Origin: an uncultured Actinomycetes bacterium
Lineage (GTDB): Bacteria > Actinomycetota > UBA4738 > HRBIN12
Assembly: GCA_963710985.1 (NCBI GenBank)
Contig: CAVQCI010000003.1
Span: 1,026,096-1,090,095, forward strand
DNA length: 64,000 nucleotides
Direction of reading: 5' to 3'
In this document: piece after piece, positions 1,657 through 21,554 of the stretch
Numbering within the stretch: position 1 is the first letter of the stretch
Layout of the letters: the number at the start of each line of letters is the position of its first letter
Notes under the pieces: generated by a model
What the model saw: the letters and a program-made list of their open reading frames with translations, nothing else
Databases searched by the model: none
Told to the model about the DNA's origin: nothing
Made by a program: the position numbers and the translations under genes

Positions 1657-1897
1657 AGACGCACGAAGGCCCCCCGGCCGAAGCAGGAGGCCAACTGTGC
1701 CACGCGCGACCGGTTCATGACGGGTGCGACCCGTACGGTGCGTGCGTGCTGTGAGTCCTTGGCATACCCGGGATGCTCCCGGCTACCACCCGATCGATCT
1801 AGAGGAATCTTCGGCCCCGCAGCCTTGGACAGACACGGCCCACAAGTCGTGATGTTGGCTCGCCCGCTACCCGATCTCCGGTAAGGCTTTGGGACTC
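1657..1897 (+). repeat. Structured repeat, long copy A (conserved ~95-nt core 1657-1753 plus 3' extension)
   Basis: Starts AGACGCACGAAGG followed by a GC hairpin. Core CGCGCGACCGGTTCATGACGGGTGCGACCCGTACGGTGCGTGC is identical to 21346-21440 and, in reverse, to 26471-26554. The 3' extension is roughly 90 percent identical to 21455-21554 by hand alignment. Confidence 0.8.
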
Positions 1898-4930: not shown

Positions 4931-7456
4931 TCACTCCGGCAGGCGGAGGCGTTTGAGCAGCAGCGCGTTGACGGCCACGAGCAGGCTCGACCCAGACATA
5001 GAGATCGCTGCGATCTCGGGGCGAAGGACGAGCCCGAAAGCGGGCTCGAAGACCCCGGCGGCGATCGGGAGCGCCACGGAGTTGTAGCCGATCGCCCAGC
5101 CGAGGTTCTGTCTCATCTTCCGAACGGTTCCCCTGCCGATGTCCAAAGCGATGGGCACGTCGAGCGGATCCGACCGCATCAAGACAACGTCAGCCGTCTC
5201 GATCGCGACATCGGTTCCGGCCCCGATCGCGATACCGAGATCCGCTCGCGCCAATGCTGGCGCGTCGTTGACGCCATCCCCGACCATAGCCACCCTTCGA
5301 CCTCCCTCCTGCAGGGCGTCTACCTGGTCGGCCTTGTCTCCGGGAAGGACCTCGGCGATGACCGTCTGCACCCCGAGCTCGTGGGCGATCCTCTCCGCGG
5401 TCGCTTGGTTGTCGCCCGTGAGCATCACCACTTCGATGCCGGCGTCCTTGAGCGCGGCGACGGCAGCCACCGACGTGTCCCGAGGGGCGTCGGCGATCCC
5501 GATGATCGCCGAGGCGACACCGTCGATGGCGACGCAGACGACCGTCCGTCCGCTGGAGGCGAGCTCCTCGCGTCGCTGCGCGAGTGGACCGAGTGATACG
5601 GCCTGCTGCTCCATGAGCCTGAGGTTCCCGACGGCCACGCGCCGGCCGTCGACGACGGCAAGCGCACCCTGACCTGGAACGTTCTCGAACGCCTCCGCGC
5701 GAGGGTTGTTCCTGCCGTCCAACTTCTCGGCGGCGAACGAAACGACGGCTTGCGCGAGGGGGTGCTCGGACTCGGTCTCGACGGCGGCGACGAGCGAAGG
5801 ACTTCGATCTTCGACATGCCGTCGACCACGAAGTCGGTAACCTCGGGCTCGCCCTTCGTCAAGGTGCCCGTCTTGTCCATCACGACGACGTCGATGGACG
5901 CAGCCGTCTCGAGCGCGATCGCGTTCTTGAACAAGATCCCGCGTTGGGCGCCCAGGCCCGTTCCGACCATGATCGCGGTGGGTGTCGCGAGCCCGAGGGC
6001 GTCGGGACACGTGATCACGACCACGGTGATCGCGAAGAGCATCGCCGTCGCGAAGTCCTTCCCGGCGAGCATCCACGCCACGAGGGTGAGGGCCCCGCCG
6101 ATCAGCGCGACGAAGACGAGCCAGAACGCAGCCCGGTCGGCCAGACGCTGGCCAGGTGCCTTCGAGTTCTGCGCTTCCTGGACCAGCTTCACGATCTGGG
6201 CGAGCGCCGTATCCGCTCCGACCTTCGTGGCCCGAACTCGGAGGGTGCCGTTCTCGTTGATCGTCGCACCGATCACTTCTGACCCGGGACCCTTCGAGAC
6301 CGGAAGGCTCTCACCCGTTACGACGGATTCGTCGACCTCGCTCTGACCTTCCTCGACGGTCCCGTCGACACCGATCTTGTCCCCGGGTCGCACGAGCATG
6401 AGGTCGCCGACCACCAAGTCTGCTGTGGGGATCTTGACCGAGACCCCGTCGCGGATCACCGTCGCCTTCGGAGGGGCGAGGTCGAGGAGCGTTCTGATCG
6501 CGTCGTTCGCCCCACCGCGGGCCCTCATCTCGAACCAGTGACCGAGGAGGACGAACGCGGCCAGCACCGACGCCGCTTCGTAGAACGTGTCACCTCCTCC
6601 GGTGAGCGTGACGCCCAGCGAATACAGCCAGCCGGCACCGATCGCGACCGCGACGAGGACCATCATGTCGAGCGTGCGGGCGCGAAGGGCGCGGACGGCC
6701 CCGTCGAAGAAGATCCACGACGAGTAGAAGACGACCGGAAGACTGAGCAGCAGCAGCCACACATCGTCTCGAAGGCCGAACGGCGCCGGCGCCGAGAAGT
6801 GAAGGACGTCCCGTCCGATGGGGGACCACAGGAGGATCGGGACGGACAGTATCGCGGCCACCAAGAAGCGGTTGCGCATGTCGCGCACCATCGCCTCCAT
6901 CGACGTGCCCGCGTGGCCGCCGTGGCCCATCATGTCGTGGGAAGAGGGCAGCGTCCTCTCGGCGGGCATCTCGTGGCCGGCGTTGATCCACGGGCATCGC
7001 GTGATCGCCGTGATCCACCGGCATCTCGTGCCCCGGGTGTTCCGTCTCCATCTCCTCATGCGTCTCGTGGCTGGCAGGCTCCGCATGCGTCGCGTGCCCC
7101 GCATGTCCGGGGGCGACGACCGTGGCGACATCCACCGGGTCCGGTTCGGACATGGCGTCGCAGATGTGGTGGGGTACCGATTGGCCGGCACAGTGGTAGC
7201 GGCACTCCTCGACCCACCGACGGAGCTCGGCGATCGACGTCGTGCCGGTGTCGTACGTCACGGTTGCCGTCTGCGACACGGGGTTCGCTTCCACGCGCTC
7301 GACCCCTGGTCGGCGTGCGAGGGCGCGTTCGACAACTACCTTCTCGCTCGCGAAGTTCAGACCCCAGACCTGAAGGACTACCGTCGCGAGCTTGCGGTCC
7401 CCGTTCTGATGCTCGCTCCCCACCAAGCTTGGGCCCACGTGGGCTGCGTGGTCCAT
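4931..7456 (-). pseudogene. P1B-type heavy-metal (copper-type) translocating ATPase, interrupted by two apparent frameshifts
   Basis: Three ORF pieces join into one ATPase. The N-terminus has a degenerate HMA domain, CRYHCAG and a His/Met-rich tract. The core has TGES, DKTGTLT, SEHPLA, GDGVNDAPAL and a TM6 motif that reads CPD. Frame changes lie near 6975-6995 and 5791-5794; restoring one nt at the latter gives the canonical [18 protein letters not shown]. Confidence 0.85.
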
Positions 7457-8583: not shown

Positions 8584-8894
8584 CGCTATTCCTTTCAGGG
8601 GTGTCTCGCCCCCGAACATGGTGCGGTGAGATGAAGAACCGACGAAACGGTTGTGTACGTTCGACGATTCTCGCTGCCACGGGTAGAAGGTGACGATGGT
8701 CGCTGCTGGCTGACCAGCGTGAGAGGCTGGCCCGACTCAAGCCAGGTGCGCTACCGAGTCGGCACAAGGCTTCATCAGGGCCGCCTCCGAGCTCGACGGG
8801 GACCTCCGCCGCGGAATCCGTGCGGTTGCGGTGGTGGCTGGAAGGATCCGACGACATGATATGGGGCTGGAGCGACTCCTGGGCAGGGTGGGGG

Positions 8895-9356
8895 TCATGC
8901 GTGGGGCGACGTCGCGAAGAGGATCGGGCAGACAAGGAACGCCGCTCGGCACAAAGGCGAGCAGAACTTGTAACTCTCGCCATCCCAACGAGTAGTAAGC
9001 GGACGCTGGTTGGTGATCGGCATCCCACAGATGGGGTCGAATAGACCCAGCGTGCCGGGCCGATCGCCGAAGATGTAGTCCATCTCCTCTCGCCAGCGGT
9101 ACCGCTCGCGATCTCCTTCGACTTCCACATCCGTTATGCCTTGCTCCGCGAATCGCGACAAGACCGCCTCGGCCTCGCCGAGGCTAAGGTGACGATCTCT
9201 CGCGAGGTCCTCGGCAGAAACGGACTTCCTCTCGCCACCGACAAGCGCAAGGTAAGCGGACCGCTCTGCGGCCGTCCCTAGATGCGCTCTCGCGAACTGG
9301 GTCCAGGGGTCATAACGCTCAGTGATCGTTCCTGTGCTCGCTCCACTCGTTCCCAT
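8895..9356 (-). CDS. YHS (TRASH-type) domain protein with helical N-terminal domain
   Basis: C-terminus FDPICGMPI...YKFCSPLCRAAF is a YHS/TRASH metal-binding motif. The gene is divergent from the lgt-ccmF ORF. Confidence 0.7.
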   Translation of the reverse strand: MGTSGASTGTITERYDPWTQFARAHLGTAAERSAYLALVGGERKSVSAEDLARDRHLSLGEAEAVLSRFAEQGITDVEVEGDRERYRWREEMDYIFGDRPGTLGLFDPICGMPITNQRPLTTRWDGESYKFCSPLCRAAFLVCPILFATSPHA

Positions 9357-9553
9357 GCCTGTGAGTCTGGTCGCTCCGTTCGCCGCCTTGATGTGGAACG
9401 CGTGAACGTCATGTGAAGCCCGGCGTGAATCGGGAGAGCCGCCGGGAGGCGGCTAGGAGGGCCGGATCACGCCCCACAGCGGGTGCGGGAGCCGCACACC
9501 GCGTTCACAACCTCCGCACAGAGTGAGCATCGACCGTCCCTAGCTTCGGTCGC

Positions 9554-12409
9554 ATGGTGAGCGCCATCTCATGGCCGGTGGTGACGGAGCTCCACTTCGG
9601 ACCGATCCCGATCCGGCCGCACGGCATCCTGATCGCCGTTGGCTTCATCGCCGGCGGGCTCGTGATGCGCCGTTCGACTAGGCGCGCAGGGATCTCCGAC
9701 GACGATCTGTGGCGCGTCCTCGAGTGGGGGCTCATGGGCGGCGTGATCGGGATGCGCATGGCGTGGGACCTCGGACACATCCGCGACATGCACTCGATCG
9801 TCGATTACGTCGCCGTCTGGAACGGCGGGATGAGTCTGCTCGGCGGACTGATCGGGGCGGTCGTCCTGGGCGGAGCCGTTGCACGCCGCGCAGGGCTGCC
9901 GCCGCTCCCGATGCTCGATATGGCCGCGGCTGGGCTCGCGCTGGGGATCGCGATCGGGCGCCTGAGCGATCTGATCATCGGCGACCATCTCGGGAAGCCG
10001 ACCTCCCTGCCGTGGGGCTTCTCCTATCAAGGCGGGATGCATCCGCTCGCAGGCGTGCCGGCTATGGGCACGGTCGTCCATCCGGTCGCGCTCTACGACC
10101 TGCTGCTCACGACAGTGCTCTTCATCGTCCTTCTGAGGTTCGCGCGTCGGCCGCGCGCGGTGGGCTCCGCGATCGCACTCTTCGTCCTCTGGTACGGGGG
10201 GAGTCGGATCCTCACAGACTTCCTGCGGACCGATCCCCGCCGGATCCTCGGTCTCACCGGGAGCCAACTCACCGCGATCGTCCTGGTCGCGGTCGTAGTG
10301 GTCGCGCTGCTCGTGCGTGCCCGCGGCTCACGTTCCACCCCTCGTCTCGCACCGCTCCCTCGGCGGGGCGCCGACCGAGAGCGCCGCCGTCGGGGAGGAG
10401 GCCTCTGTATGAACACCATCGGCAGGTACGCGCTGCTCCTCGCGCTCGCGTGCACGACGAGCAGCGCCGTGCTCGGCTACATCGGCGGCCGACGGCGACG
10501 GCCCTCGGCGACCCGCGCCGCCGAAGGGGGGCTGCGCGCCTCTGCGCTCCTGCTATCTGTCGCAGGGTTCGCCCTCTTCTACGCGCTCGTCACACGCGAC
10601 TTCTCGCTCGAGTACGTCGCCTCGTACACGAGCCGGGACCTTTCGCTCTTCTACACGCTCGGCGCGTTCTGGGCGGGACAGGCCGGATCGCTCCTCCTGT
10701 GGGCCTGGGTGCTCGCGATCTATGCGGCGGTGGTCGTCCGGCAGAACCGGACGCGCAACCGGGACCTGATGCCCTGGGTCGTGACGGTGATCGCGACCGT
10801 GCTGGCCTTCTTCACGTTCCTCGTCGTGTTCCTTTCGAACCCGTTCAACACGGTGGCTGCCGTGCCGCCCGACGGGCAGGGGTTGAATCCGTTGTTGCAG
10901 AACTACGGGCAGTGGATCCACCCGGTCACGCTCTACATGGGATACGTCGGGTTCGCGGTGCCGTTCGCGTTCGCGGTGGCGGCGCTCGCGACGGGCAATG
11001 TCGGCGACACCTGGATCCGCACCGTGCGCAAGTGGTCCCTGTGGGCGTGGCTCCTGCTCACGGTCGGGATCATGTTCGGAGCCCGCTGGGCATACGTCGA
11101 GCTCGGCTGGGGTGGCTTCTGGGGCTGGGACCCGGTCGAGAACGCGAGCCTGCTGCCGTGGCTCACCGGAACCGCGTACCTGCACTCGGTGATGATCCAA
11201 GAGAAACGCGGGATGTTGAAGGTCTGGAACGTCTTCCTGATCACCGCGACGTTCGCACTCTCGATCTTCGGCACGTTCCTGACGCGGTCCGGCGTCGTGT
11301 CGTCGGTCCACGCCTTCTCCGAGTCGAGCATCGGCCCGTTCCTGATCCTGGCGGTGGCCACTGTGGTCGTCGGGATGGGAACGCTGATCATCTGGCGGCT
11401 CCCGCTCCTGCAGGGCGAGCACCGGATCGACGCCGTCGTCTCGCGCGAAACGTCGTTCCTCGTGAACAACCTCCTGCTGCTCGGGATGGCGTTCACGGTG
11501 TTCTGGGGCACCATGTTCCCGCTCGTCGCGGAGGCCGTCCGCGGCGTGAAGGTGTCCGTCGGCGGTCCCTTCTTCGAGGCGTTGATGACGCCTCTCGCCG
11601 TTGGCCTGCTCGTGCTCGCCGGCGTCTGTCCGCTGCTCGCATGGCGGAAGGCGACGGGGAGGAACCTGCGTCGTAACTTCACAGGCCCAGCGATCGCCGG
11701 CGCGGTGGGGTGGGCTGTGCTCCTCGCGTGGTCCCGGGCGCAGCACCTGGGAGCCGACGCGATCGTCGCCCTGTCGATCTTCGTCATGGCGACGATCGTG
11801 CAGGAGTTCTGGCGCGGGACGCGAGCGCGTCGGACGACGCGGGGCGAGGGCTGGGGGCGCTCCTTCATCAACCTGTTCTCGCGCAACCCGCGCCGCTACG
11901 GCGGGTACGTGATCCACCTCGGGATCGTGATCCTGTTGACCGGCGTCGCGATCAACGCCTCGTACAAGGTGGAGTCGCGCCTCGCCGGCGTGGCGGTCGG
12001 GCAGTCCTCGACGGTGGGTGGCTACACGGTGACCCTGCGATCGCTCAGGACCGAGACGACGGCGACGCGACAGACGATCGTCGGGACCTTCAGTCTCCGC
12101 GACCCGAGCGGGCGCGACCTGGGGACCGTCGACGCGGAGAAGTCGTTCTATCCCAACCAGGATCAGCCGGCGACGGAGGTCGGGATCCGCTCCACGCCGT
12201 GGGCCGATCTCTACATCATCCTGTCGGACCCCGATCCGGCGCGTCAGATCGCGGCCGTCTCGTACCTCGTGAACCCCGGCATGTATTGGATCTGGCTGGG
12301 GGCGCTGATCGTCGTGATCGGCGGCGTGATCGTCGGGTGGCCCAGCACGCGACGCCCGGAGACGAAGGAGGTGCCCGATGCGGCGGAGTTCGCGCGGGCC
12401 GAGGCGTAG
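9554..12409 (+). CDS. ccmF: Single 951-aa ORF: Lgt (prolipoprotein diacylglyceryl transferase) domain fused in frame to CcmF-type heme lyase
   Basis: Residues 1-270 carry Lgt motifs (HGILIAVGF, GGMSLLGGLIG, IGRLSDLIIGDHLGKPTSLPWGF, HPVALYD). From the ATG at 10409 (preceded by GGGGAGGAGG) the protein is CcmF, with WGGFWGWDPVENASLLPWL. There is no in-frame stop between the two parts. Confidence 0.8.
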   Translation: MVSAISWPVVTELHFGPIPIRPHGILIAVGFIAGGLVMRRSTRRAGISDDDLWRVLEWGLMGGVIGMRMAWDLGHIRDMHSIVDYVAVWNGGMSLLGGLIGAVVLGGAVARRAGLPPLPMLDMAAAGLALGIAIGRLSDLIIGDHLGKPTSLPWGFSYQGGMHPLAGVPAMGTVVHPVALYDLLLTTVLFIVLLRFARRPRAVGSAIALFVLWYGGSRILTDFLRTDPRRILGLTGSQLTAIVLVAVVVVALLVRARGSRSTPRLAPLPRRGADRERRRRGGGLCMNTIGRYALLLALACTTSSAVLGYIGGRRRRPSATRAAEGGLRASALLLSVAGFALFYALVTRDFSLEYVASYTSRDLSLFYTLGAFWAGQAGSLLLWAWVLAIYAAVVVRQNRTRNRDLMPWVVTVIATVLAFFTFLVVFLSNPFNTVAAVPPDGQGLNPLLQNYGQWIHPVTLYMGYVGFAVPFAFAVAALATGNVGDTWIRTVRKWSLWAWLLLTVGIMFGARWAYVELGWGGFWGWDPVENASLLPWLTGTAYLHSVMIQEKRGMLKVWNVFLITATFALSIFGTFLTRSGVVSSVHAFSESSIGPFLILAVATVVVGMGTLIIWRLPLLQGEHRIDAVVSRETSFLVNNLLLLGMAFTVFWGTMFPLVAEAVRGVKVSVGGPFFEALMTPLAVGLLVLAGVCPLLAWRKATGRNLRRNFTGPAIAGAVGWAVLLAWSRAQHLGADAIVALSIFVMATIVQEFWRGTRARRTTRGEGWGRSFINLFSRNPRRYGGYVIHLGIVILLTGVAINASYKVESRLAGVAVGQSSTVGGYTVTLRSLRTETTATRQTIVGTFSLRDPSGRDLGTVDAEKSFYPNQDQPATEVGIRSTPWADLYIILSDPDPARQIAAVSYLVNPGMYWIWLGALIVVIGGVIVGWPSTRRPETKEVPDAAEFARAEA

Positions 12410-12977
12410 GTATAGCCGGGTGGCTTCGGGGATCGCCGCCGCGGCGCTGGTCGGCGCCGTCGCCGCGATCGTCGTGTTCGGTGCGTTCCCGCACGTAGCG
12501 ATGGCGGGGACGATGTACGACGTCGCCCAGGTGTCGACCGCGCCGAGCATGGCTCCCCACGACGCCCAGGAGATCCCGGTCAGCGACGGGCTCAAGCGTG
12601 TGCTGCAGGGGCTCTTGTGCCAGTGCGGCTGCAACCTGGACGCCTACGGTTGCCAGCAGACGATGACCTGCAAGGTCTCGAGCGCGATGTGGCGTCAGGC
12701 CGCGCGGATGGTCGATCGCGACGGGAAGACGCCGACGGAGGCGCTGCAGTTGTTCGCCGCCGACTACGGCGAGTACGTCCTGGCCTCGCCAACGAAGGAG
12801 GGCTTCAACCTGACCGTGTGGGTTCTGCCGTTCGTCGCACTCCTGGTCGGAGGTGTGGTACTCGCCTTCGCTTTGCGCGGGTGGCGTCGCACGCCGCGAC
12901 CGATCGAGGCCGAAGCCCCAACCCTGGATCCCGCCCTCCGGGACCGGATCGAGCGTGAGCTGTTCGAGGAGGACTAG
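12378..12977 (+). CDS. ccmH: CcmH/NrfF-like cytochrome c biogenesis protein
   Basis: GAAGGAGG lies 6 nt before the ATG. The Cys motif LLCQCGC is followed by MWRQAARMVDRDGKTPTEALQLFAADYGEYVL and a C-terminal TM helix, matching CcmH architecture. Confidence 0.75.
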   Translation: MRRSSRGPRRRYSRVASGIAAAALVGAVAAIVVFGAFPHVAMAGTMYDVAQVSTAPSMAPHDAQEIPVSDGLKRVLQGLLCQCGCNLDAYGCQQTMTCKVSSAMWRQAARMVDRDGKTPTEALQLFAADYGEYVLASPTKEGFNLTVWVLPFVALLVGGVVLAFALRGWRRTPRPIEAEAPTLDPALRDRIERELFEED

Positions 12978-13442
12978 ATGCTGCTCGTAACGATCGTCTC
13001 GTTCGCGCTGTTCATAGCCGCGGTGACGATGATCGCAGCGCCGCTGTTGCGCCCCGACCCTGCAGATGTCCCCGATGAAGGCGACGACTTGTCTCCACGA
13101 CGGCAGCGCCTGCTCACGGACATCCGTGAGCTCGACCATGATCTGGCGACCGGCAAGCTCGACACCATCGATCACGAACGATTCCGGGCGACCGCCCTCG
13201 CCGAGCTCGCGAGCACGATCGAGGCGATGGATCAAGCCGGTCCGCCGATAGATGACGCTCGCGAGCCCGACGGCGAGGCGTTCGATGTTGATGCCTGGCT
13301 CGAATCCAAGATCGCCGAACGCAGGCAGACGCTGCAAGCCTCGCCCTGTTGCCCGGAGTGTGAGGCTCCGCGCGACCCGGGCGACGCGTTCTGCCGCCGG
13401 TGCGGCGCTCCCGCGTTCGCACGCGCGACGAAGGTGACGTAG
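12978..13442 (+). CDS. CcmI-like N-terminal module with C-terminal zinc ribbon
   Basis: The ATG directly follows the ccmH stop. An N-terminal TM helix is followed by RRQRLLTDIRELDHDLATGKLD (like the CcmI N-domain). The C-terminus is CPECEAPRDPGDAFCRRCG. Confidence 0.55.
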   Translation: MLLVTIVSFALFIAAVTMIAAPLLRPDPADVPDEGDDLSPRRQRLLTDIRELDHDLATGKLDTIDHERFRATALAELASTIEAMDQAGPPIDDAREPDGEAFDVDAWLESKIAERRQTLQASPCCPECEAPRDPGDAFCRRCGAPAFARATKVT

Positions 13443-13444
13443 CC

Positions 13445-14053
13445 GTGAGAACCGTCGATCAGCACCAAACAGCGCAGGATACGGACGAGCCGGGCGGAGA
13501 GACCGGCCGCGTCACGAAGCGCAGTGGCCGCTTCACCTCGATCGTCGTATCGATCGTGATCGGCGGTCTCATGCTTGGCGTCTTAGCGGCCGCAGCCAAG
13601 GTCAAAGGAGGTCCTCAGCTCGCCGCGAACCCCTCGGGCCCGGCCCCGGACTTCACCCGGCCGCTCCTGGAGGGCGAGGGTTCGATCACCCTGTCCGATC
13701 TTCGAGGACACCCCGTCCTGCTCAACTTCTGGGCGTCGTGGTGCGGGCCGTGCAGGGACGAGGCCCCCGTCCTCGCAGCGGGGTGGACGAAGTGGCGCGA
13801 CAGCGGCGTCATCTTCCTCGGAGTCGACACGCGAGACAGCAGGAGCGCTGCGATCGAGTTCGAGCGGCGCTACGGGGTGGAGTACCAGAGCGTCGTCGAC
13901 GAGAACGAGGAGGTCAACTACGCATACGGCGTGACCGGGTTCCCGGAGTCGTTCTTCATCGACGCTCGAGGTCAGATCGTCGCCAAGTACGTCGGGCCGA
14001 TGGATACGCCGACGCTCGATGCGTACGTCTCGATGCTGGTCAAGGGATCGTAA
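13445..14053 (+). CDS. TlpA/ResA/CcmG-like membrane-anchored thiol:disulfide oxidoreductase
   Basis: Contains FWASWCGPCRDEAP (a thioredoxin-type CxxC active site) after a TM anchor. GTG at 13445 was chosen because it follows the upstream stop; an ATG at 13400 is also possible. Confidence 0.85.
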   Translation: MRTVDQHQTAQDTDEPGGETGRVTKRSGRFTSIVVSIVIGGLMLGVLAAAAKVKGGPQLAANPSGPAPDFTRPLLEGEGSITLSDLRGHPVLLNFWASWCGPCRDEAPVLAAGWTKWRDSGVIFLGVDTRDSRSAAIEFERRYGVEYQSVVDENEEVNYAYGVTGFPESFFIDARGQIVAKYVGPMDTPTLDAYVSMLVKGS

Positions 14054-14065
14054 GGAGGCGTGACC

Positions 14066-14746
14066 GTGCAACGAGCCAACGTCGCGATCTTCCTCACGGC
14101 CGTCGCGTTGATCGGTCTCGCGCCGCTCATCCTTGCCGTGGCATCCGTCGCTCGTCGCCGCGCAGATGGCGGGGGCGCTGGACGACGTGGCCGGCGCCGG
14201 CTCGCCGTCGCCGGGATGGCGAGCCTACTGCTCGTTGGAGTCACGGTCCTGGCAGCGTGGGCACTCGCGGGCAGGACGCAACCGGGGGCCGGATCTGCGT
14301 CGGGCATGCGGGGGATGGGCGCCGGTTCCGGCGGGATGTCGACCCACGTGCGCGTACCTCGCACGCTCGCGGGGCTCAAGATCACGGCTCTCACGCGTGG
14401 TGATGATGCGATCGCCGAAGTCACCACACTCCACGGCTCGGCGTTCCCGCTCGTCGATGCCGCTGTCGCCCGGTACGGAGACCGGGTCGACGTGTGGGTG
14501 TCGTCTGCGCCCGACGTCGCGACCGCCCGGCGAGAGGTCGACGAGATGCGCATCCGGATCGCCGACGGGGGAACGCCGTTCGCCACACCGACCCTCGTCC
14601 GCACCGCAGGACGCGTGTTCACCACCTCGGGGATGGGGGAGCGGCACTTCTTCTTCTCGTCCGGTCGCGACGTCTGGTGGATCAGCGCTCCTGGGCCGTT
14701 CGCGGAGGCGGCGCTCCATGACCTCATGGGAGGAGCAGCGGCATGA
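14066..14746 (+). CDS. Hypothetical membrane protein (2 TM helices plus soluble domain)
   Basis: AGGAGG lies 7 nt before the GTG at 14066 (alternative GTG at 14060). The gene is translationally coupled to its neighbours. I recognised no family. Confidence 0.55.
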   Translation: MQRANVAIFLTAVALIGLAPLILAVASVARRRADGGGAGRRGRRRLAVAGMASLLLVGVTVLAAWALAGRTQPGAGSASGMRGMGAGSGGMSTHVRVPRTLAGLKITALTRGDDAIAEVTTLHGSAFPLVDAAVARYGDRVDVWVSSAPDVATARREVDEMRIRIADGGTPFATPTLVRTAGRVFTTSGMGERHFFFSSGRDVWWISAPGPFAEAALHDLMGGAAA

Positions 14747-15090
14747 TGACCATCCATCTCCTCGGCGGTGTGGGGCTTGCCGTGCTCGCGATCGCGACGG
14801 CGGCCGCGTTCCTCGTACGTCGAGCCGTTCCGCGCGCGACCCTCGCTGCCTGGGCGCTCGCCCTGCTCCTCGTGCAGGTGGCGACGGGCATGCTTCTGCT
14901 CACCGCGACGAACGAGGGTCCAGGCCCCGTCCACGTCGCGGTGCCGCTGGCCGCTCTCGCGGTCGCAGGCGCGGCGCGGTTCTTCTCGTCCATGCGAGGG
15001 CGGGGTGGCACAGCGGTGCTCAGCGCGGCATACGCCTTCGTGGCGTTCGCGGCGCTCGTCGCCCTCGCAACGGGTCTGGCAGGCGGGTGA
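14743..15090 (+). CDS. Hypothetical integral membrane protein
   Basis: ATGA overlap with the upstream gene; 115 aa with four hydrophobic helices. Confidence 0.55.
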   Translation: MMTIHLLGGVGLAVLAIATAAAFLVRRAVPRATLAAWALALLLVQVATGMLLLTATNEGPGPVHVAVPLAALAVAGAARFFSSMRGRGGTAVLSAAYAFVAFAALVALATGLAGG

Positions 15091-15159
15091 GAATCCGATG
15101 ACACGATCCTGGAACGAGGGTGGCGTACCCTGCCTTCGATGAGGATGGGTGTCTGAACC

Positions 15160-15861
15160 TTGGGCGCGGCGACGATCCTCGTGGTCGACGACGAGCAGAA
15201 GATCCGCGACACCGTCCGGCAGTACCTCGAGCACGACGGGTACTCGGTGCTGGTCGCGGACAGTGGTCAGCGCGCGCTCGAGATCTTCGCTCGCTCGGAG
15301 CCGGACCTGATCGTCTTGGATCTGATGCTGCCCGATCTGTCGGGGCAGGAGGTGGCCCGCGCTATCCGCGAGTTGGCGCCGACGCCCATCATCATGCTGA
15401 CCGCGAAGTCGACCGAGGACGACCGCGTACAGGGCCTGAAGCTCGGTGCTGACGACTACCTCGTGAAGCCGTTCTCGCCGCGCGAGCTGATGGCACGCAT
15501 CGAAGCGGTTCTGCGACGAACGTCGAACCACGGCGATCGGCCGGGGGCGATGTCGTTCGAAGGTGGCAAGCTCTCGATCGATCGCGAGGCGCGCGAGGTG
15601 ACCGTGGAGGGGGAGTTCGTGGAGCTCACCCGGAGCGAGTTCGACCTCCTCCTCGCCCTCGCGTCGCGGCCCGGTCGCGTGTTCTCTCGGTACGAGCTCG
15701 TCACGCGCGTCCAGGGTTACGACTACGAAGGCTATGAGCGCACGATCGATGCGCACGTGAAGAACGTCCGACGGAAGCTGCGCGATGACCCGAAGCACCC
15801 TCGCTACCTGGTCACCGTGACCGGCGTCGGCTACAAGCTCGGCGTGAAAGCCGATGGGTAG
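15160..15861 (+). CDS. OmpR-family response regulator
   Basis: Receiver motifs ILVVDDE, DLIVLDLMLPD and LTAK, followed by a winged-helix output domain (TVTGVGYKL). Confidence 0.9.
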   Translation: MGAATILVVDDEQKIRDTVRQYLEHDGYSVLVADSGQRALEIFARSEPDLIVLDLMLPDLSGQEVARAIRELAPTPIIMLTAKSTEDDRVQGLKLGADDYLVKPFSPRELMARIEAVLRRTSNHGDRPGAMSFEGGKLSIDREAREVTVEGEFVELTRSEFDLLLALASRPGRVFSRYELVTRVQGYDYEGYERTIDAHVKNVRRKLRDDPKHPRYLVTVTGVGYKLGVKADG

Positions 15862-17248
15862 GTCCTACCGGCTCCGGCTGGTCGCGGCCTTCGCCGGCGT
15901 CGGGATAGGGGCGGCGGCCCTGACCGCTCTGCTCGTGAACGCTGCCTTCAGTCCGAGGTTCGACCTGTACGTCCAGCAGCAGCGGCAGGTCCACGAGCAG
16001 CAGATGCAGGCGGCGCTGGCTGATTCCTACGCGAAGATGGGCGGATGGAACACCGCTGACCTCAACGGACTCGCCCCGTTGGCGTTGATGGACGGTGGGA
16101 CGCTCCGGCTCCTCGACGCGCAAGGGCGACAGGTGTGGGACGCGTCCGCCGGTCCAGGCTCGCGACTCGCTCAGATGCAGCACACGATGAGTGGGGGATC
16201 GACGCTCGGGCCTGAGGACCGGGTGCCGGTCACGGTCGGCCACAACACAGTCGGTACCGCCGTGATCAGGTTCCCGGTGTCCGGGCTGCTTCCGCAGGAC
16301 CAAGCGTTCCGCGCGTCGGTGAACCGGCTGCTCGTCCTCGGTGGCATCGCCGCCGCCGTGTTCGCCGTGATCGCCGGAGCCGTCCTCGCTCGTCGGGCCG
16401 TGCGTCCCGCCCTGGAACTGACCGAGGTCGCGAGGTCCGTCGCCGCCGGTGACCGGTCTCTTCGTGTGGTCCCCGACGCGACCGAGGAGTTCGCGGCGAT
16501 GGCGCGCGCGTTCAACCAGATGGCGGACACGGTCGCCGAGGAAGACGAGCTTCGCCGAACGTTCGCGGCCGACGTCGCCCATGAACTCCGTACCCCGCTG
16601 GCGGTCTTGCTCAGCCAGGTCGAAGGGATGCAGGACGGCGTGATCGGCGCCGACCCCGTTGCGCTTTCTTCGCTGCACGAGGAGACGCTCCGCATCGGGC
16701 GGCTGGTCGCCGACCTCGAGACCCTCGCGTCCGCCGACGCCGCCGGCTTCACCCTCGCACCCGTGCAAACCGACCTCGACGTCCTCCTCGGGGACGTCGC
16801 CGCCGAGTTCGCCGGCCTCGCGGATGCGCGCAACGTCGCGATCACCGTCGATACGGAGCCCCTTAGCCTCGTCCTCGACCCGAGTCGCATCAAGCAGGTG
16901 GTCGCCAACCTCGTCTCGAACGCGGTGAAGTTCACACCGGAGGGCGGCGCCGTCTCGCTATGGCTTCGCCGCGAGGGGGACGAGGCGTGCGTCGCTGTTA
17001 CCGACACGGGTCCGGGCATCCCCGAGGATGAGCTGCCCCATGTCTTCGAGCGGTTCTTCCGTGGACGCGATGTGCGCGCAGGTGGTTCCGGGATCGGTCT
17101 GAGCGTCGCGCGTGAGTTGGTAGTGGCGCACCACGGCTCGCTCAGCGTCACGAGCCGCGCCGGCCAGGGCGCTCGATTCGAGATGAGGCTGCCGGTGAGT
17201 ACGCCCGTCGCGGCGACCACGGCGCAGACGTCCGACCGCTCGAGCTGA
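15854..17248 (+). CDS. Sensor histidine kinase (TM, HAMP, HisKA, HATPase_c)
   Basis: H-box FAADVAHELRTPLAV, N-box NLVSNAVKFTP and G-boxes DTGPGI and GSGIGLSVA. Overlaps the response regulator stop. Confidence 0.9.
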   Translation: MGRSYRLRLVAAFAGVGIGAAALTALLVNAAFSPRFDLYVQQQRQVHEQQMQAALADSYAKMGGWNTADLNGLAPLALMDGGTLRLLDAQGRQVWDASAGPGSRLAQMQHTMSGGSTLGPEDRVPVTVGHNTVGTAVIRFPVSGLLPQDQAFRASVNRLLVLGGIAAAVFAVIAGAVLARRAVRPALELTEVARSVAAGDRSLRVVPDATEEFAAMARAFNQMADTVAEEDELRRTFAADVAHELRTPLAVLLSQVEGMQDGVIGADPVALSSLHEETLRIGRLVADLETLASADAAGFTLAPVQTDLDVLLGDVAAEFAGLADARNVAITVDTEPLSLVLDPSRIKQVVANLVSNAVKFTPEGGAVSLWLRREGDEACVAVTDTGPGIPEDELPHVFERFFRGRDVRAGGSGIGLSVARELVVAHHGSLSVTSRAGQGARFEMRLPVSTPVAATTAQTSDRSS

Positions 17249-17342
17249 CGGTTCCATCGCCGCGAAGGTCGCGTCGTTCGCGCACAGGCCCTTCACGGCG
17301 CGTTCACACGCTTGTCCGAAGTTGCATGGCGGAAGGTACGCC

Positions 17343-17699
17343 ATGAAGACCCGGACGCTGGTGATCGCAGGAACGCTCGCGGCGACGGTCCTCGTCTTGC
17401 TCGTCGTGCTCGGCTGGCCGAGGCCGGCGACCGAGACGCAACCACCTGCGGGATCGATCTCTGCACCCGAAGCCCAGTTGATCTGGTATGCGATGCAGTG
17501 GCACGACTCCGCAGTGAGCTCTGGCGACCGCGGAGGTGCGGCGACGCCGTGTCGTCTCCACCGGCTCGGGCTCAACGTGACGACCACCCTCCACCGAACC
17601 ATCCCTTCTCTCTCTGAGCTGGGCCCGGCGCGGCTGAGTGGCCACACCCGGTTCCAGACAGGGTGGGAGGCAGTGCCGAGCGAAAGGGCCGAGAGATGA
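17343..17699 (+). CDS. Small membrane-anchored hypothetical protein
   Basis: GGAAGG lies 8 nt before the ATG. N-terminal anchor is MKTRTLVIAGTLAATVLVLLVVL. The stop overlaps the next start (ATGA at 17696-17699). Confidence 0.45.
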   Translation: MKTRTLVIAGTLAATVLVLLVVLGWPRPATETQPPAGSISAPEAQLIWYAMQWHDSAVSSGDRGGAATPCRLHRLGLNVTTTLHRTIPSLSELGPARLSGHTRFQTGWEAVPSERAER

Positions 17700-18355
17700 C
17701 ATCGCGAACGGCATCGCACGCGACCGACCATCGCGCGAACCACAAGACCGCCGCCATCCGCAAGGCCGAGCGTCGCCGCGCGGCGGAGCGTCGAGCGGCG
17801 CGCAAGCGTGCGCTGCAGATCACGGGTGCGATCGTCGTCGTCGCCGCGCTCGGGTACCTCGCGACGCGGAGCTCGTCGGGGGAGAAGGCTCCGCCGGTCT
17901 CGCTGGCAGGTATCCGAGCGGTGTCGAACACCGAGTTCCCGGCGAGCGACGGCAAGTCGGTGACCCTGTCGCAGTTCGCGGGAAGCCCCCTCGTCCTCTA
18001 CTTCTACGAAGGGCAGTCCTGCGGCGCGTGTCAGACGCAATTGGCCGACATCCAGAAGGAGTTCCCGCAACTCCAGGCGACTGGTGCGCACGTGCTGGGC
18101 GTCACGACGGACCCCGTTGACGTCTCGGCCTCGGTCGCGTCGCAGCTCGGGCTCTCGTATCCGATCGTCGAGGACGTCGATCACCAACTCGGTTCGGCGA
18201 TGGGAACGTTCGAGGCGAGTGGCCACATGGGCCCGGCAGACCAGCACTCCGTCGTCGTGCTGGGCGCCGACGGATCCGTCGCGTGGCGCCAACTCGCGGG
18301 GACGACGATGTACGTGGCCCCGGACGCGATCTTGAGCGCCGTGAAGGGGGCATAG
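17696..18355 (+). CDS. Membrane-anchored AhpC/TSA-type redoxin
   Basis: A TM anchor is followed by a thioredoxin fold with LVLYFYEGQSCGACQTQL and VLGVTTDP. Confidence 0.75.
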   Translation: MTSRTASHATDHRANHKTAAIRKAERRRAAERRAARKRALQITGAIVVVAALGYLATRSSSGEKAPPVSLAGIRAVSNTEFPASDGKSVTLSQFAGSPLVLYFYEGQSCGACQTQLADIQKEFPQLQATGAHVLGVTTDPVDVSASVASQLGLSYPIVEDVDHQLGSAMGTFEASGHMGPADQHSVVVLGADGSVAWRQLAGTTMYVAPDAILSAVKGA

Positions 18356-18613
18356 ATGACCTCCTCACTCCGCTATCTGACGTCGCCGGACTGCCACCTG
18401 TGTGAGCGCGGGAGGGACATCGCCGAGAAGCTCGCCGACGAGGCTGGGATCGAGCTCGTCGAACTCACATGGACCGAGCCGTGGGCACGCGAGCGGATCG
18501 AGCGAGATGCCGTGGCCTTCCCCCCGGCGCTCTACCTCGAAGATAGGCTCCTCGGGTACGGCCGCCTCTCAGAGCGCCGCCTCCGCAAACTCGTGATGGC
18601 GGTGCCCGCATGA
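18356..18613 (+). CDS. Glutaredoxin-like small thioredoxin-fold protein (DUF836-like)
   Basis: 85 aa with CHLC near the N-terminus. The ATG directly follows the upstream TAG. Confidence 0.65.
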   Translation: MTSSLRYLTSPDCHLCERGRDIAEKLADEAGIELVELTWTEPWARERIERDAVAFPPALYLEDRLLGYGRLSERRLRKLVMAVPA

Positions 18614-19686
18614 ACGGGCTCGTCTACTCTGCGTCCCTCATCGCGGCGTTCCTCGGTGGCGTCCTCGCGTTGTTCGCGCCGTGCTGCGTGGTCACGCTCT
18701 TGCCGAACTTCGTTGCGACCGCGGTGCGCCGCGGCGTGCGTGCGTTGCCAGCCACGACGCTGCTCTTCTCCACGGGCTTGGCCCTCGTCCTGCTCCCGAT
18801 CGTGCTGGGCGTCGGGGCTCTCGGCCACACGATCGGGCGTTACCACGCCGCGGTCTTCACGACGATCGGCATCTTCCTGATCGCCCTCGGCACCTACATC
18901 CTGACCGGGAAGCGGTGGTCGTTGCCGCTGCCAATGATGTCGAAGCCGAGCGGCAACGGGGCCACCTCGACGTTCTTCCTCGGGACCGCTTCGGGAGTGG
19001 CCAGCTCCTGCTGTGCGCCGGTCGTCGCCGGGGTGGTCGCGATGTCTGCGCTGAGCGGGTCATGGATCGGGGCGCTCGGGCTCGGGCTCGCGTACATCTT
19101 CGGCATGGTCTTCCCGCTGCTGCTGTTCGCGATCGCGGCGGTTCGGCATGGGCAACGGTCGAACCGGCCGCTTCGGAAGGTCACGATGTTCGGGCGGGAG
19201 CTCCTCTGGACCGACGCTGTGTCGGGCTCGATGTTCGTTCTGTTCGGCGCGATCACGTTCTTCCTCGGCATCAGCGGTGAGGGAAGCGTGACGCCCGGCC
19301 CACTCGCGGTCTGGGATCGCGTCGTGACCCGCCGGTTCGCCGACCTCGCTGCCGCGCTCGGTAAGACGCCCCTCGTGCTGCAGGCCGGGTTCCTGGTGCT
19401 GCTCGCCGTCCTCGTCGCGGTCCCTCTCTGGCGCACGATGCGCGCCGACGATGGAGGTGGAACCGCGGGAGGCCGGGGTGCTCGTGGCACACGTGTGCGC
19501 ACTACGACGAACCGGGAACGCGATCCGGTGTGCGGGATGGTCGTGCTCGTCCGGCCCGACAGCTTGTCGGCAGACTGGGACGCGAAGACCTACCACTTCT
19601 GTGCGGCGGCGTGCCGCGAACGGTTCGTCGAGAGGCCCGAGGAGTTCGTGAGGCCAGCGACCGCGTCCAGTGCCTCGTCTCGTTGA
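18610..19686 (+). CDS. CcdA/DsbD-like transmembrane thiol-transfer protein fused to a C-terminal YHS domain
   Basis: Six hydrophobic helices carry FAPCCVV and SSCCAPV. The C-terminus DPVCGMVV...YHFCAAACRERF is a YHS/TRASH motif. ATGA overlap with the upstream gene. Confidence 0.8.
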   Translation: MNGLVYSASLIAAFLGGVLALFAPCCVVTLLPNFVATAVRRGVRALPATTLLFSTGLALVLLPIVLGVGALGHTIGRYHAAVFTTIGIFLIALGTYILTGKRWSLPLPMMSKPSGNGATSTFFLGTASGVASSCCAPVVAGVVAMSALSGSWIGALGLGLAYIFGMVFPLLLFAIAAVRHGQRSNRPLRKVTMFGRELLWTDAVSGSMFVLFGAITFFLGISGEGSVTPGPLAVWDRVVTRRFADLAAALGKTPLVLQAGFLVLLAVLVAVPLWRTMRADDGGGTAGGRGARGTRVRTTTNRERDPVCGMVVLVRPDSLSADWDAKTYHFCAAACRERFVERPEEFVRPATASSASSR

Positions 19687-19779
19687 GGGGCACTTTCCGC
19701 AGCTTCATCGCGACATGTCACGAGCTTCACGTGGCCTTCACACGCTGCGAGTAGCCTGGGGGTCGAAAGGAGATCACAC

Positions 19780-20031
19780 ATGATGTGGGGCAACGACTGG
19801 GGTTGGGGCGGATGGGCCCTCGGGTTCCTGATGATGCTCGTGTTCTGGGGAGGTCTCGCGGCGCTCATCGTGCTGCTGGTTCGAGGAACAGACCGCACGA
19901 GCGACCGACAGGAGCCGCGAGGCGATCCGCACGACGCGGACGCGATCCTGCGGGAGCGCCTGGCGCGCGGTGAGATCTCGGTCGAGGAGTATGAGGAGCG
20001 CAAGAAGGTGCTCCAGGACGCGGGCAGCTAG
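19780..20031 (+). CDS. SHOCT-domain small membrane protein
   Basis: AAAGGAG lies before the ATG. A Trp/Gly-rich N-terminus and TM helix are followed by LRERLARGEISVEEYEERKKVL (SHOCT). Confidence 0.8.
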   Translation: MMWGNDWGWGGWALGFLMMLVFWGGLAALIVLLVRGTDRTSDRQEPRGDPHDADAILRERLARGEISVEEYEERKKVLQDAGS

Positions 20032-21345: not shown

Positions 21346-21554
21346 AGACGCACGAAGGCCCCCGGAAGAACCGGAGGCCAACTGTGCCACGCGCGACCGG
21401 TTCATGACGGGTGCGACCCGTACGGTGCGTGCGTGCTGTGGGTGACACGATCGACCTAGAAGAACCTTCGGCCCCGCAGCCTCGGACACACATGGCCCAC
21501 AAGTCCTGATGTTGGCTCGCCCGATACCCGATCTGCGGTACGGCTTTGGGAGTC
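21346..21554 (+). repeat. Structured repeat, long copy B
   Basis: Same start (AGACGCACGAAGG), GC hairpin GGCCCCCGG-AAGAA-CCGGAGGCC, identical core up to 21440, and a 3' extension matching 1800-1897. Confidence 0.8.

Follow-up and report, generated by a model that had tools for sequence, protein, structure and literature searches.

Copper is toxic to bacteria partly because it scrambles cysteine chemistry at the cell surface and, to our knowledge, the known counter-measures, Scs and DsbDEG, come from Gram-negative bacteria. In Pseudomonas aeruginosa, the copper-sensing DsbRS system activates dsbDEG, and Cys82 in the periplasmic part of DsbS is critical (bioRxiv 10.1101/2020.08.17.255257); in Corynebacterium glutamicum, CopRS induces a tlpA-like gene >200-fold (PMC3140484); and in a mycobacterial adenylyl cyclase, the YHS domain probably serves as a module for copper sensing (PMC4626032). 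Here, we describe a redox operon (positions 17343-19686) in a window of 64,000 nucleotides (nt) from an uncultured Actinomycetes bacterium (genome G000, contig C3, positions 1026096-1090095). The operon encodes a CcdA-type membrane protein that carries vicinal cysteine pairs and a C-terminal YHS domain, together with two redox partners. On balance, we read the operon as a copper-induced reductive relay across the cytoplasmic membrane resembling Scs and DsbDEG. We lean with similar caution towards the region around it being a copper-stress island built of separable units.

The genome comprises 3.7 Mb in 8 contigs with 67% G+C and a marker completeness of 81.6%, and the best relatives are uncultured soil Actinomycetota. 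For comparison, the six-frame open reading frames (ORFs) of 80 related loci were scanned with seed proteins using phmmer and then jackhmmer. Pfam families were listed for window proteins at E <= 0.01, the gathering cut-offs being 30.3 bits for YHS (PF04945), 27.1 bits for DsbD_TM (PF02683), and 27 bits for SHOCT.

The four-cysteine CcdA variant and its redox partners

The last gene of the redox operon had been described in a first-pass annotation of this DNA as encoding a CcdA/DsbD-like membrane protein with vicinal cysteines, and this description holds. The 358-amino acid (aa) protein has APCC at residues 23-26 and SSCCAP at residues 132-137, and the best match of its family profile in the Protein Data Bank, over residues 7-240, is Thermus thermophilus CcdA (5VKV; E 1.9e-12). 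In this alignment, C25 in transmembrane helix (TM) 1 and C134 in TM4 fall on the two redox cysteines of CcdA, C26 is an additional, inserted residue, and C135 stands where TPCIGP of CcdA has Ile. P24-C25-C26 and C134-C135-A136-P137 do not vary across an alignment of 110 family members. An AlphaFold model (predicted local distance difference test, pLDDT, 72; 89-95 in the YHS domain) also has 5VKV as its top Foldseek match (probability 1.0, target-normalised TM-score 0.49). Beyond the CcdA region, the protein has an additional amphipathic segment and a seventh helix, the latter present in the model. Pfam DsbD_2 showed no homology to the protein among the families listed, and a scan of the genome with PF02683 reported only the canonical CcdA on contig C6. 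By homology, then, the 358-aa protein is a CcdA homologue in which both canonical redox cysteines are doubled. As read by eye, basic residues are concentrated in the C-terminal linker and in loops 1, 3, and 5; from this and from the seventh helix, we predict an external N-terminus and a cytoplasmic YHS domain.

This YHS domain (residues 305-348) matches the Pfam model with E 1.1e-5 and 25.7 bits in hmmscan and with 29.7 bits in a genome-wide scan, or 30.4 bits including neighbouring matches; its TRASH signature, C-x22-C-x3-C, is kept in homologues. The family as a whole comprises 1353 proteins at E <= 0.001 among the candidates scored, and its LALFAPCC or AYVFGMVFP patterns occur in 401 loci of species-representative genomes. 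The YHS fusion is limited to a small subclade of ~22 protein clusters with 54-72% identity and to loci L023-L026, and because these clusters come from independent assemblies, the fusion is no artefact. In place of YHS, most actinomycete members end in a tail that is acidic and contains a Cys-His dyad (..PSCHAT.., ..SCHD.., ..HCH), and the short tails of members from Chloroflexota and Dormibacterota contain neither Cys nor His. Such a variable C-terminus fits an accessory, regulatory role for the YHS domain or tail. In locus L044, a YHS reading frame begins 9 nt after the CcdA variant, an arrangement that plausibly represents the state before the fusion.

The four genes of the operon, encoding a small secreted protein, a CxxC redoxin, a CHxC glutaredoxin-like (Grx-like) protein, and the CcdA-YHS protein, are translationally coupled. 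The ATGA and TAG-ATG junctions noted at the outset were found, ATGA between lgt and ccmF, between the genes for two membrane proteins of 228 and 115 aa, and between the Grx-like and CcdA genes, and TAG-ATG between ccmH and the next gene and between the redoxin and Grx-like genes. In an additional ATGA junction, the 118-aa ORF that opens the operon overlaps the likely true start of the redoxin gene at 17696. This ORF has no homologue in any related locus compared. In relatives, a gene behind that of the kinase encodes a secreted Met/His-rich protein of 126 aa (GGMMGG...HGAHHG; L005 8572-8952; L026; L143 6-452). It occupies the position of the 118-aa ORF, to which it is unrelated, and has no homologue in the window.

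The redoxin has an N-terminal anchor that follows a basic stretch, and its nearest solved structures are of the BCP/PrxQ type (E 7e-12). Its active site reads FYEGQSCGAC. In the 77 aligned orthologues, EG(A/Q)(G/S)CxxC takes the place of the peroxiredoxin PxxxTxxC, and a conserved His that of the peroxiredoxin catalytic Arg. The PxxxT/SxxC motif and the conserved Arg of peroxiredoxins are thus both absent, the former replaced by CxxC and the latter by His, and therefore the protein appears to be a CxxC oxidoreductase on a peroxiredoxin scaffold. The 85-aa Grx-like protein, which lacks a TM segment, has no Pfam match of its own, and nothing significant was found among solved structures. Its relatives match PF05768 (Glrx-like) weakly, and RefSeq labels an orthologue 'glutaredoxin'. 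In 72 orthologues, C-H-x-C is present in ~90% and a cis-Pro-type loop (FPPAL or MNPLVL) in nearly all, along with a GRLS/GRLP motif.

As the first-pass annotation had called for measuring the co-occurrence of these genes across genomes, we asked how constant their association is. Within 3 kb of the CcdA variant, the redoxin is found in 78/80 loci and the Grx-like protein in 79/80, and the three genes form an adjacent triad in ~78-80 of the 80. The order is Rdx-Grx-CcdA in the window, Chloroflexota, Dormibacterota, and Bacillota, and Grx-CcdA-Rdx in Cellulomonas, Sanguibacter, Demequina, and other Actinomycetes. In total, the triad occurs in ~400 species and on plasmids of cultured Cellulomonas, Streptomyces, Rhodococcus, and Burkholderia. 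We conclude that a widespread three-gene module is centred on the four-cysteine CcdA; in the literature searched, we found no description of the module, of a vicinal-cysteine CcdA, or of a CcdA-YHS fusion.

Both the 80-locus survey and the annotated plasmids place the module repeatedly in copper-resistance contexts. A response regulator and a kinase lie within 10 kb of the triad in 52/80 and 49/80 loci, respectively (within 3 kb, 42/80 and 38/80), a SHOCT protein in 42/80 (29/80 within 3 kb), and a P1B ATPase in 41/80; also within 10 kb are YHS proteins (22/80), BlaI/M56 proteins of the CopY family (18-19 of 80), Lgt (16/80), and CopCD (15/80). Metagenomic loci give the same picture. On a plasmid of Cellulomonas sp. 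C5510, Lgt, a regulator and kinase, glutaredoxin, CcdA, redoxin, DUF305, an ATPase, and Lnt are encoded together, and on a Burkholderia contaminans plasmid CueR, DUF2933, CcdA, peroxiredoxin-family and thioredoxin-family proteins, ICMT, and an ATPase; on both, RefSeq names the carrier "cytochrome c biogenesis protein CcdA".

We also note three features of such islands. On a Cellulomonas plasmid (L146 8549-8686), the redoxin gene is followed by one for a 45-aa Cys-rich peptide (SCCQ...HECCGGTRC). Additional lgt copies recur in copper islands (L005, L008, L012, L013, L143, and L146 among the 16 loci counted above), lnt is present on the Cellulomonas plasmid, and three lgt paralogues are present in the genome studied here; the processing of lipoproteins may be induced by copper as part of the response. 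Many of the islands (L028-L030, L037, and others) also encode canonical CcdA-thioredoxin fusions of ~400 aa (DipZ-like), and in some canonical CcdA genes the cysteine is doubled in TM1 only (SPCCLPLLP).

Probable regulators and a common promoter box

The first-pass annotation had further reported that a P1B ATPase, TlpA-like, AhpC/TSA-like, and glutaredoxin-like redoxins, an OmpR-type regulator with its histidine kinase, and a SHOCT protein lie together, and all of these were located (Table 1), the ATPase gene being frame-broken.

Table 1 Features of the proposed copper-stress island in the window and the basis of their assignment
Feature	Coordinates	Strand	Basis or remark
Direct repeat, left copy	1686..1897	+	Brackets island
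P1B-type ATPase, degenerate HMA, His-rich linker, TM6 CPD, two frame shifts	4931..7456	-	Pfam HMA, E1-E2_ATPase, Hydrolase on three overlapping ORFs
Saccharopine-dehydrogenase-like gene	7480-8619	-	
153-aa winged helix-turn-helix (wHTH) + YHS/TRASH protein	8895..9356	-	wHTH ~9069-9308, YHS 8913-9038
TTCAC-N6-TTCAC box 1	9402..9417	-	46 nt upstream of 153-aa regulator start, divergent promoter region common with lgt
lgt (prolipoprotein diacylglyceryl transferase)	9554..10412	+	Pfam LGT 149 bits
CcmF/NrfE-family heme lyase subunit	10409..12409	+	Pfam Cytochrom_C_asm, CcmF_C; TIGR00353 429 bits
CcmH-like protein, lineage-typical motif LLCQCGCNLDAYGC	12378..12977	+	Pfam CcmH 50 bits
Membrane-anchored CcmI-like partner, C-terminal zinc ribbon	12978..13442	+	Pfam Zn_Ribbon_1, weak; follows CcmH in L013, L014
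ResA/TlpA/DsbE-like membrane-anchored thioredoxin, WCGPC, uncertain start codon	13400..14053	+	Pfam AhpC-TSA, Redoxin, Thioredoxin; NCBIfam ResA, DsbE
Two membrane proteins, 228 aa + 115 aa, ATGA-joined	14060..15090	+	Orthologues in L013
OmpR-family response regulator	15160-15861	+	Pfam
HAMP/HisKA histidine kinase	15854-17248	+	Pfam
TTCAC-N6-TTCAC box 2	17292..17307	+	36 nt upstream of four-gene redox operon
118-aa ORF with signal anchor, ATGA-joined to redoxin gene	17343..17699	+	ORF, junction
Membrane-anchored (N-in, C-out) peroxiredoxin-fold redoxin with CGAC	17696..18355	+	Pfam AhpC-TSA 78 bits
85-aa cytoplasmic glutaredoxin-like protein, CHLC active site	18356..18613	+	Orthologue alignment
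Four-Cys CcdA variant, 358 aa, predicted seventh TM helix + cytoplasmic C-terminal YHS/TRASH	18610..19686	+	Profile, model
PCC motif of CcdA variant	18679-18687	+	Sequence
SCCAP motif of CcdA variant	19006-19020	+	Sequence
YHS/TRASH domain of CcdA variant	19522-19653	+	Pfam YHS
TTCAC-N6-TTCAC box 3	19726..19741	+	39 nt upstream of SHOCT gene
Small membrane protein with SHOCT domain	19780..20031	+	Pfam SHOCT 33.9 bits vs 27
Direct repeat, right copy	21373..21554	+	Brackets island

TTCAC-N6-TTCAC is a direct repeat with 11-bp spacing, the kind of site that OmpR/PhoB-type regulators use. The window contains three exact matches to this box where 0.04 would be expected, all at island promoters, and the whole 3.7-Mb genome contains only seven, three of them in the island. 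The homologous position of box 2 is kept in L005, L006, L007, and L026, and that of box 3 is occupied in L023 and L026; in relatives (also L143), boxes precede the redoxin operon, SHOCT, lgt, the gene for the Met-rich protein, and the regulator gene itself. We infer that the adjacent OmpR-type regulator may bind the box as its operator, with copper as the signal, and that the box defines a candidate regulon. Its presence at several island promoters also argues for co-regulation of these genes. The periplasmic domain of the window kinase has a Met/His motif (AQMQHTMSGG). Kinases of the window type share a conserved periplasmic (A/S)xM(H/N/Q)RxMMG motif (M-H-R-x-M-M-G) and those of the Cellulomonas type have FHEHM; both motifs are plausible copper ligands.

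The 153-aa protein carries the second YHS domain of the island (residues 107-148; E 6.1e-7; 29.8 bits in hmmscan, 31.8 bits in the whole-genome scan), with a C-x21-C-x3-C signature that is also kept in homologues. Judged strictly by gathering scores, both YHS segments fall narrowly short in hmmscan, which narrowly triggers the refuting condition set in the first-pass annotation; the significant E-values, the cysteine spacing, and the PF04945 matches of homologues outweigh this, and we regard both segments as genuine YHS/TRASH domains at or just below the Pfam threshold. The part ahead of this YHS domain had been called a helical N-domain: the helices are present, and the domain as a whole is identified as a DNA-binding winged helix because of its matches to helix-turn-helix (HTH) families, the wing in its AlphaFold 2 model, and its structural similarity to regulators in Foldseek. 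Specifically, among 48 aligned family members, 29 match YHS and 10 match TrmB, and others match MarR, HTH_20, Rrf2, IclR, or Crp-type HTH; the model (pLDDT 85.7) has three helices followed by a beta-hairpin wing and the YHS fold; and Foldseek returned ArsR/SmtB, CadC, AntR, MarR, Fur, and TrmB-like regulators with probability 1.0.

A word-indexed homologue search for this protein returned 3 clusters and an exhaustive profile search 158 proteins at E <= 1e-10, of which ~60 of the 150 listed are full-length. Besides the genome's own copy, one of 400 other genomes sampled in the phylum has a strong full-length homologue (G170, of another genus; E 8e-39), in a string with the order CcdA variant, redoxin, lgt, wHTH-YHS, regulator, kinase, and Met-rich protein, which places it between lgt and the two-component system. 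In the window, the 153-aa gene lies upstream of the ATPase gene on the same strand, with one gene, saccharopine-dehydrogenase-like, between them. Two further YHS genes are on contig C1, one of them directly ahead of a second copper-type ATPase. Archaeal CopR/CopT and the TRASH/YHS family were reportedly described by Ettema et al. in 2003, and from its domain composition the 153-aa protein is probably a copper-responsive transcription regulator of this type.

A proposed reductive relay and its alternatives

Homology, motifs, gene order, co-conservation, and the common box are the grounds on which we favour the relay. The Grx-like protein (inside) and the anchored redoxin (outside) are the partners that a CcdA relay needs, and because of this we predict the following direction of electron flow. 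The cytoplasmic Grx-like protein, through its CHLC site, would reduce the four-cysteine CcdA-type carrier in the membrane, and the carrier would reduce the membrane-anchored extracytoplasmic CxxC redoxin, which in turn might act at the cell surface, either in repairing copper-catalysed disulfides or sulfenates or in keeping thiols of copper handling or of cytochromes reduced. The fused cytoplasmic YHS/TRASH domain is predicted to bind Cu(I) and to tune or protect the carrier; in this lineage, it would take the place of the short Cys-His tail found in most homologues from actinomycetes. The 153-aa wHTH-TRASH protein would be the Cu(I)-responsive regulator heading the minus-strand ATPase operon, and the OmpR-type regulator and its kinase probably drive the island via the TTCAC-N6-TTCAC boxes. 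The metal-sensing pathway for envelope thiol reduction that the first-pass annotation had proposed thus remains the best reading of the redox operon; the 153-aa protein, which had been counted with it, lies outside the redox pathway.

Several observations weigh against this relay. A plain electron relay does not need the invariant doubled cysteines, and Cys is paired with His in every component (CHxC, Cys-His tail, CxxC + His), which resembles Cu(I) ligation. Because ~20/80 islands also encode a canonical single-Cys CcdA, often thioredoxin-fused, the four-cysteine form is probably an accessory paralogue that is not redundant with ordinary electron transfer. The periplasmic domain of the window kinase is without cysteine, so it has no equivalent of DsbS Cys82. 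In terms of profile scores, DsbD_TM reaches 22.2 bits on the 358-aa protein, under its gathering cut-off, and both YHS domains likewise score below theirs in hmmscan. Finally, the ATPase and lgt genes are frame-broken, and part of the island may be decaying or may contain assembly errors.

The first two of these points lead to an alternative in which copper itself, or another soft metal, is relayed: Cu(I) would cross the membrane by way of a thiolate site formed by the four membrane cysteines, in analogy to the Cys-Cys helices of MerT, MerF, and MerE. On the cytoplasmic side, metal would be donated or accepted by the CHxC protein and by the YHS domain or Cys-His tail, and outside the membrane the redoxin, with CxxC and His, would be a Sco-like acceptor. 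Transport might be redox-driven, Cu being bound when the site is reduced and facing in and released when it is oxidised and facing out. In keeping with this, the vicinal cysteines are invariant in 110 sequences, apparent metal-binding-type tails (YHS, ...SCHxT, HCH, CHEC) are present in most actinomycete members, a His lies within the CxxC of ~90% of Grx-like orthologues, and the redoxin has a conserved His and Met near its active site and a faint SCO1/SenC match (E 0.006). The co-occurrence of canonical CcdA in ~20/80 islands fits as well, and a role for a TM cysteine pair is documented in Mer transporters (PMC5715351). Against it, the protein has no homology to MerT, MerC, MerE, or MerF (Pfam, E <= 0.01) but is homologous to an electron carrier and retains both canonical redox cysteines, and its partners are thioredoxin-fold proteins with a cis-Pro-type loop, neither HMA, CusF, nor CopC-type chaperones. 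Moreover, copper import would be counter-productive in a resistance island, export lacks an obvious energy source, and the Chloroflexota and Dormibacterota members have no metal-binding tail. We therefore hold such a copper relay, the main rival of the electron relay, to be unlikely.

We give a similarly low rating to the broader proposal that the CcdA variant is a copper-handling member of the DsbD superfamily, which might take either of two forms. In the first, a redox-driven Cu(I) translocator, copper may be loaded on the tetrathiolate from cytoplasmic YHS/CHxC donors and released outside on oxidation. In the second, a carrier with Cu(I)-gated electron flux, Cu(I) on the YHS domain or Cys-His tail may gate this flux directly. 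If the proposal were true, the YHS fusion would be Rosetta-stone evidence for a direct interaction between YHS and CcdA, also where the two are separate neighbouring genes.

A second alternative is that the island is a decaying, non-functional remnant in which the frame breaks are real and the YHS fusions physiologically irrelevant. The window has three such breaks in ~6 kb. Comparison of the ATPase with intact orthologues (76-82% identity) by tblastn requires frames -1/-2/-1, with a 1-nt deletion near 5795 and the other break in the His-rich linker near 6960. As for the third, a 951-codon ORF (9554-12409) suggested an Lgt-CcmF fusion, which we rejected because 0/120 best relatives are fused. 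In the nearest locus (L013), lgt and ccmF overlap by ATGA, and the window segment homologous to the tail of L013 Lgt lies in another frame, ending at the TGA of ATGA; by this comparison, a single-base indel near 10330 (~codon 260) makes lgt read through into ccmF. The breaks and the intactness of rpoB and rpoC, the repeats that bracket the island, and the second copper-type ATPase with its own YHS gene on contig C1 are compatible with decay. Conversely, the redox operon, regulator, two-component system, and SHOCT gene are intact with motifs and coupled junctions preserved, and a second ccmF, in the canonical ccmE/ccmC locus (C1 72253-74281), is also split into two frames. Genome-wide, same-strand frame switches (based on GC3, the G+C content at third codon positions) are 2.3-2.7x more frequent than in isolate loci (245 kb) whose G+C is similar or higher, which, together with 81.6% completeness in 8 contigs, points to assembly indels. 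A uniformly error-ridden assembly is not shown, rpoB and rpoC being intact. We somewhat favour assembly error over real decay as the source of the breaks, and we consider a defunct island improbable. In this genome, many genes may be called in disrupted form.

With regard to the bracketing repeats, they belong to families D3 and D1, are 99% and 89% identical, and lie ~19.7 kb apart with the whole island between them; we do not take them as proof of mobility. We also note that the ATPase belongs to a subgroup (L006, L012, L144) with T-C-P-D-A-L-G in TM6, an HMA fold that lacks the cysteines of CxxC (GLNFASEK), a C(G)(Y/L)HCAG(R/Q)SVPNH(I/V)CD motif, and a His-rich linker, all of which intact orthologues keep. 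On these motifs, the subgroup may be a distinct P1B subtype.

The window CcmF has the WWD-type motif WGWDPVENAS and is 79% identical to unfused CcmF proteins of 670 aa; its NCBIfam score does not reach the CcmF subfamily cut-off (429 vs 569 bits). The order in L013 is lgt, ccmF, ccmH, and genes for a 153-aa protein, a redoxin, and proteins of 235 and 115 aa. A 71% identical CcmF relative (L014) lies in a complete ccmE-A-B-C-D-F-H operon amid multihaem cytochromes, and the unusual CcmH motif LLCQCGCxLxAYxC is common to the window and this canonical operon. In the genome, ccmH is single-copy: by tblastn, the window holds the only copy, with no second ccmH elsewhere and none after the ccmF on contig C1, where ccmE, ccmC, the second ccmF, and CcmI-like, ResA-like, and 228-like genes are found. 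The 228-aa and 115-aa membrane proteins have no Pfam match. They accompany ResA-like genes in the lineage, and a paralogue adjoins the ResA-like gene at the C1 ccm locus.

Each gene of the block has its homologue in canonical System I operons of this lineage, and the only ccmH lies in the block; we therefore interpret the lgt-ccmF-ccmH-ccmI-like-resA genes most simply as ordinary System I cytochrome c maturation. The first-pass annotation had set the whole stretch apart from plain cytochrome maturation; this probably applies to the triad and not to the block, for which such maturation is the simplest explanation. The block's sole links to copper are its position and box 1 in the divergent promoter. 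Copper induces the cytochrome c maturation genes ccsA and ccsB in C. glutamicum (PMC3140484), and co-regulation of the block with the island is plausible. The idea that the triad serves this maturation by reducing the neighbouring ResA-like protein and CcmH, as CcdA does in Bacillus, and that the island is a locus of cytochrome maturation with adjacent copper genes, draws on this precedent, on the proximity of the triad to lgt-ccmF-ccmH-resA, on CcdA normally feeding ResA or CcmG, and on CcmF or CcmH within 10 kb in L033, L083, L084, and L090, but no more than 3-4 of the 80 triad loci also contain CcmF or CcmH, the triad has its own redoxin, the genome's canonical CcdA adjoins a CcsBA-type gene on contig C6, and the nearest CcmF relatives have the ccm block without the triad in the flanks compared, making this the least probable of the readings considered.

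Comparison with known systems

We return to the reductive relay and its regulators to place them among described systems. Should the 153-aa protein act as predicted, it would extend an archaeal kind of copper regulator to bacteria. Like archaeal CopR/CopT, it combines an N-terminal winged helix with a C-terminal TRASH signature (C-x19-22-C-x3-C) and is encoded upstream of a copper-type ATPase. Unlike these, it is bacterial and of a rare type, its winged helix is closer to TrmB, MarR, and ArsR than to the Lrp type, and one unrelated gene separates it from the ATPase. For the YHS domain of the CcdA variant, the nearest parallel is the Mycobacterium phlei adenylyl cyclase (PMC4626032), which also has a C-terminal, presumably copper-responsive YHS domain on a short linker; in the window, the domain is attached to a membrane thiol carrier. 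Mutable residues for deciding whether a DsbD-family protein can sense or carry copper are available in the YHS fusion, in the Cys-His tails, and in the dedicated CHxC donor.

MerT, MerF, and MerE resemble the CcdA variant in having vicinal cysteines, followed by Pro, in a TM helix and soluble cysteine-containing partners on both sides of the membrane. There is, however, no detectable homology, the fold and number of TM helices differ, and the Mer proteins are linked to mercury and the window to copper.

The ScsABCD proteins of Salmonella, Proteus, and Caulobacter (ScsB-TlpA-PprX) and the DsbRS-DsbDEG system of P. aeruginosa share more with the redox operon. They, too, combine a DsbD-family carrier with extracytoplasmic thioredoxin-fold proteins in the context of copper tolerance, and a two-component system adjoins the operon, often divergently. 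They differ in that ScsB and DsbD have periplasmic alpha (and gamma) domains and single cysteines. The window-type module is found mostly in monoderm organisms, and its acceptor is a CxxC protein of peroxiredoxin fold. In contrast to DsbRS, the window kinase has Met/His motifs and lacks the DsbS cysteine, and the box is TTCAC-N6-TTCAC rather than TAA-N7-TTAAT.

The closest described relative in sequence and fold is CcdA itself, as represented by 5VKV and by B. subtilis CcdA with ResA/StoA. The two share homology over six TM helices, active cysteines in TM1 and TM4, and a thioredoxin-fold acceptor outside. Unlike CcdA, the window variant doubles each cysteine, with SCCAP in TM4 in place of TPCIGP, and adds a seventh helix and a cytoplasmic tail, here YHS; it is accompanied by a gene for a dedicated CHxC Grx-like protein where CcdA relies on general thioredoxin, and its context is a copper island instead of cytochrome maturation or sporulation.

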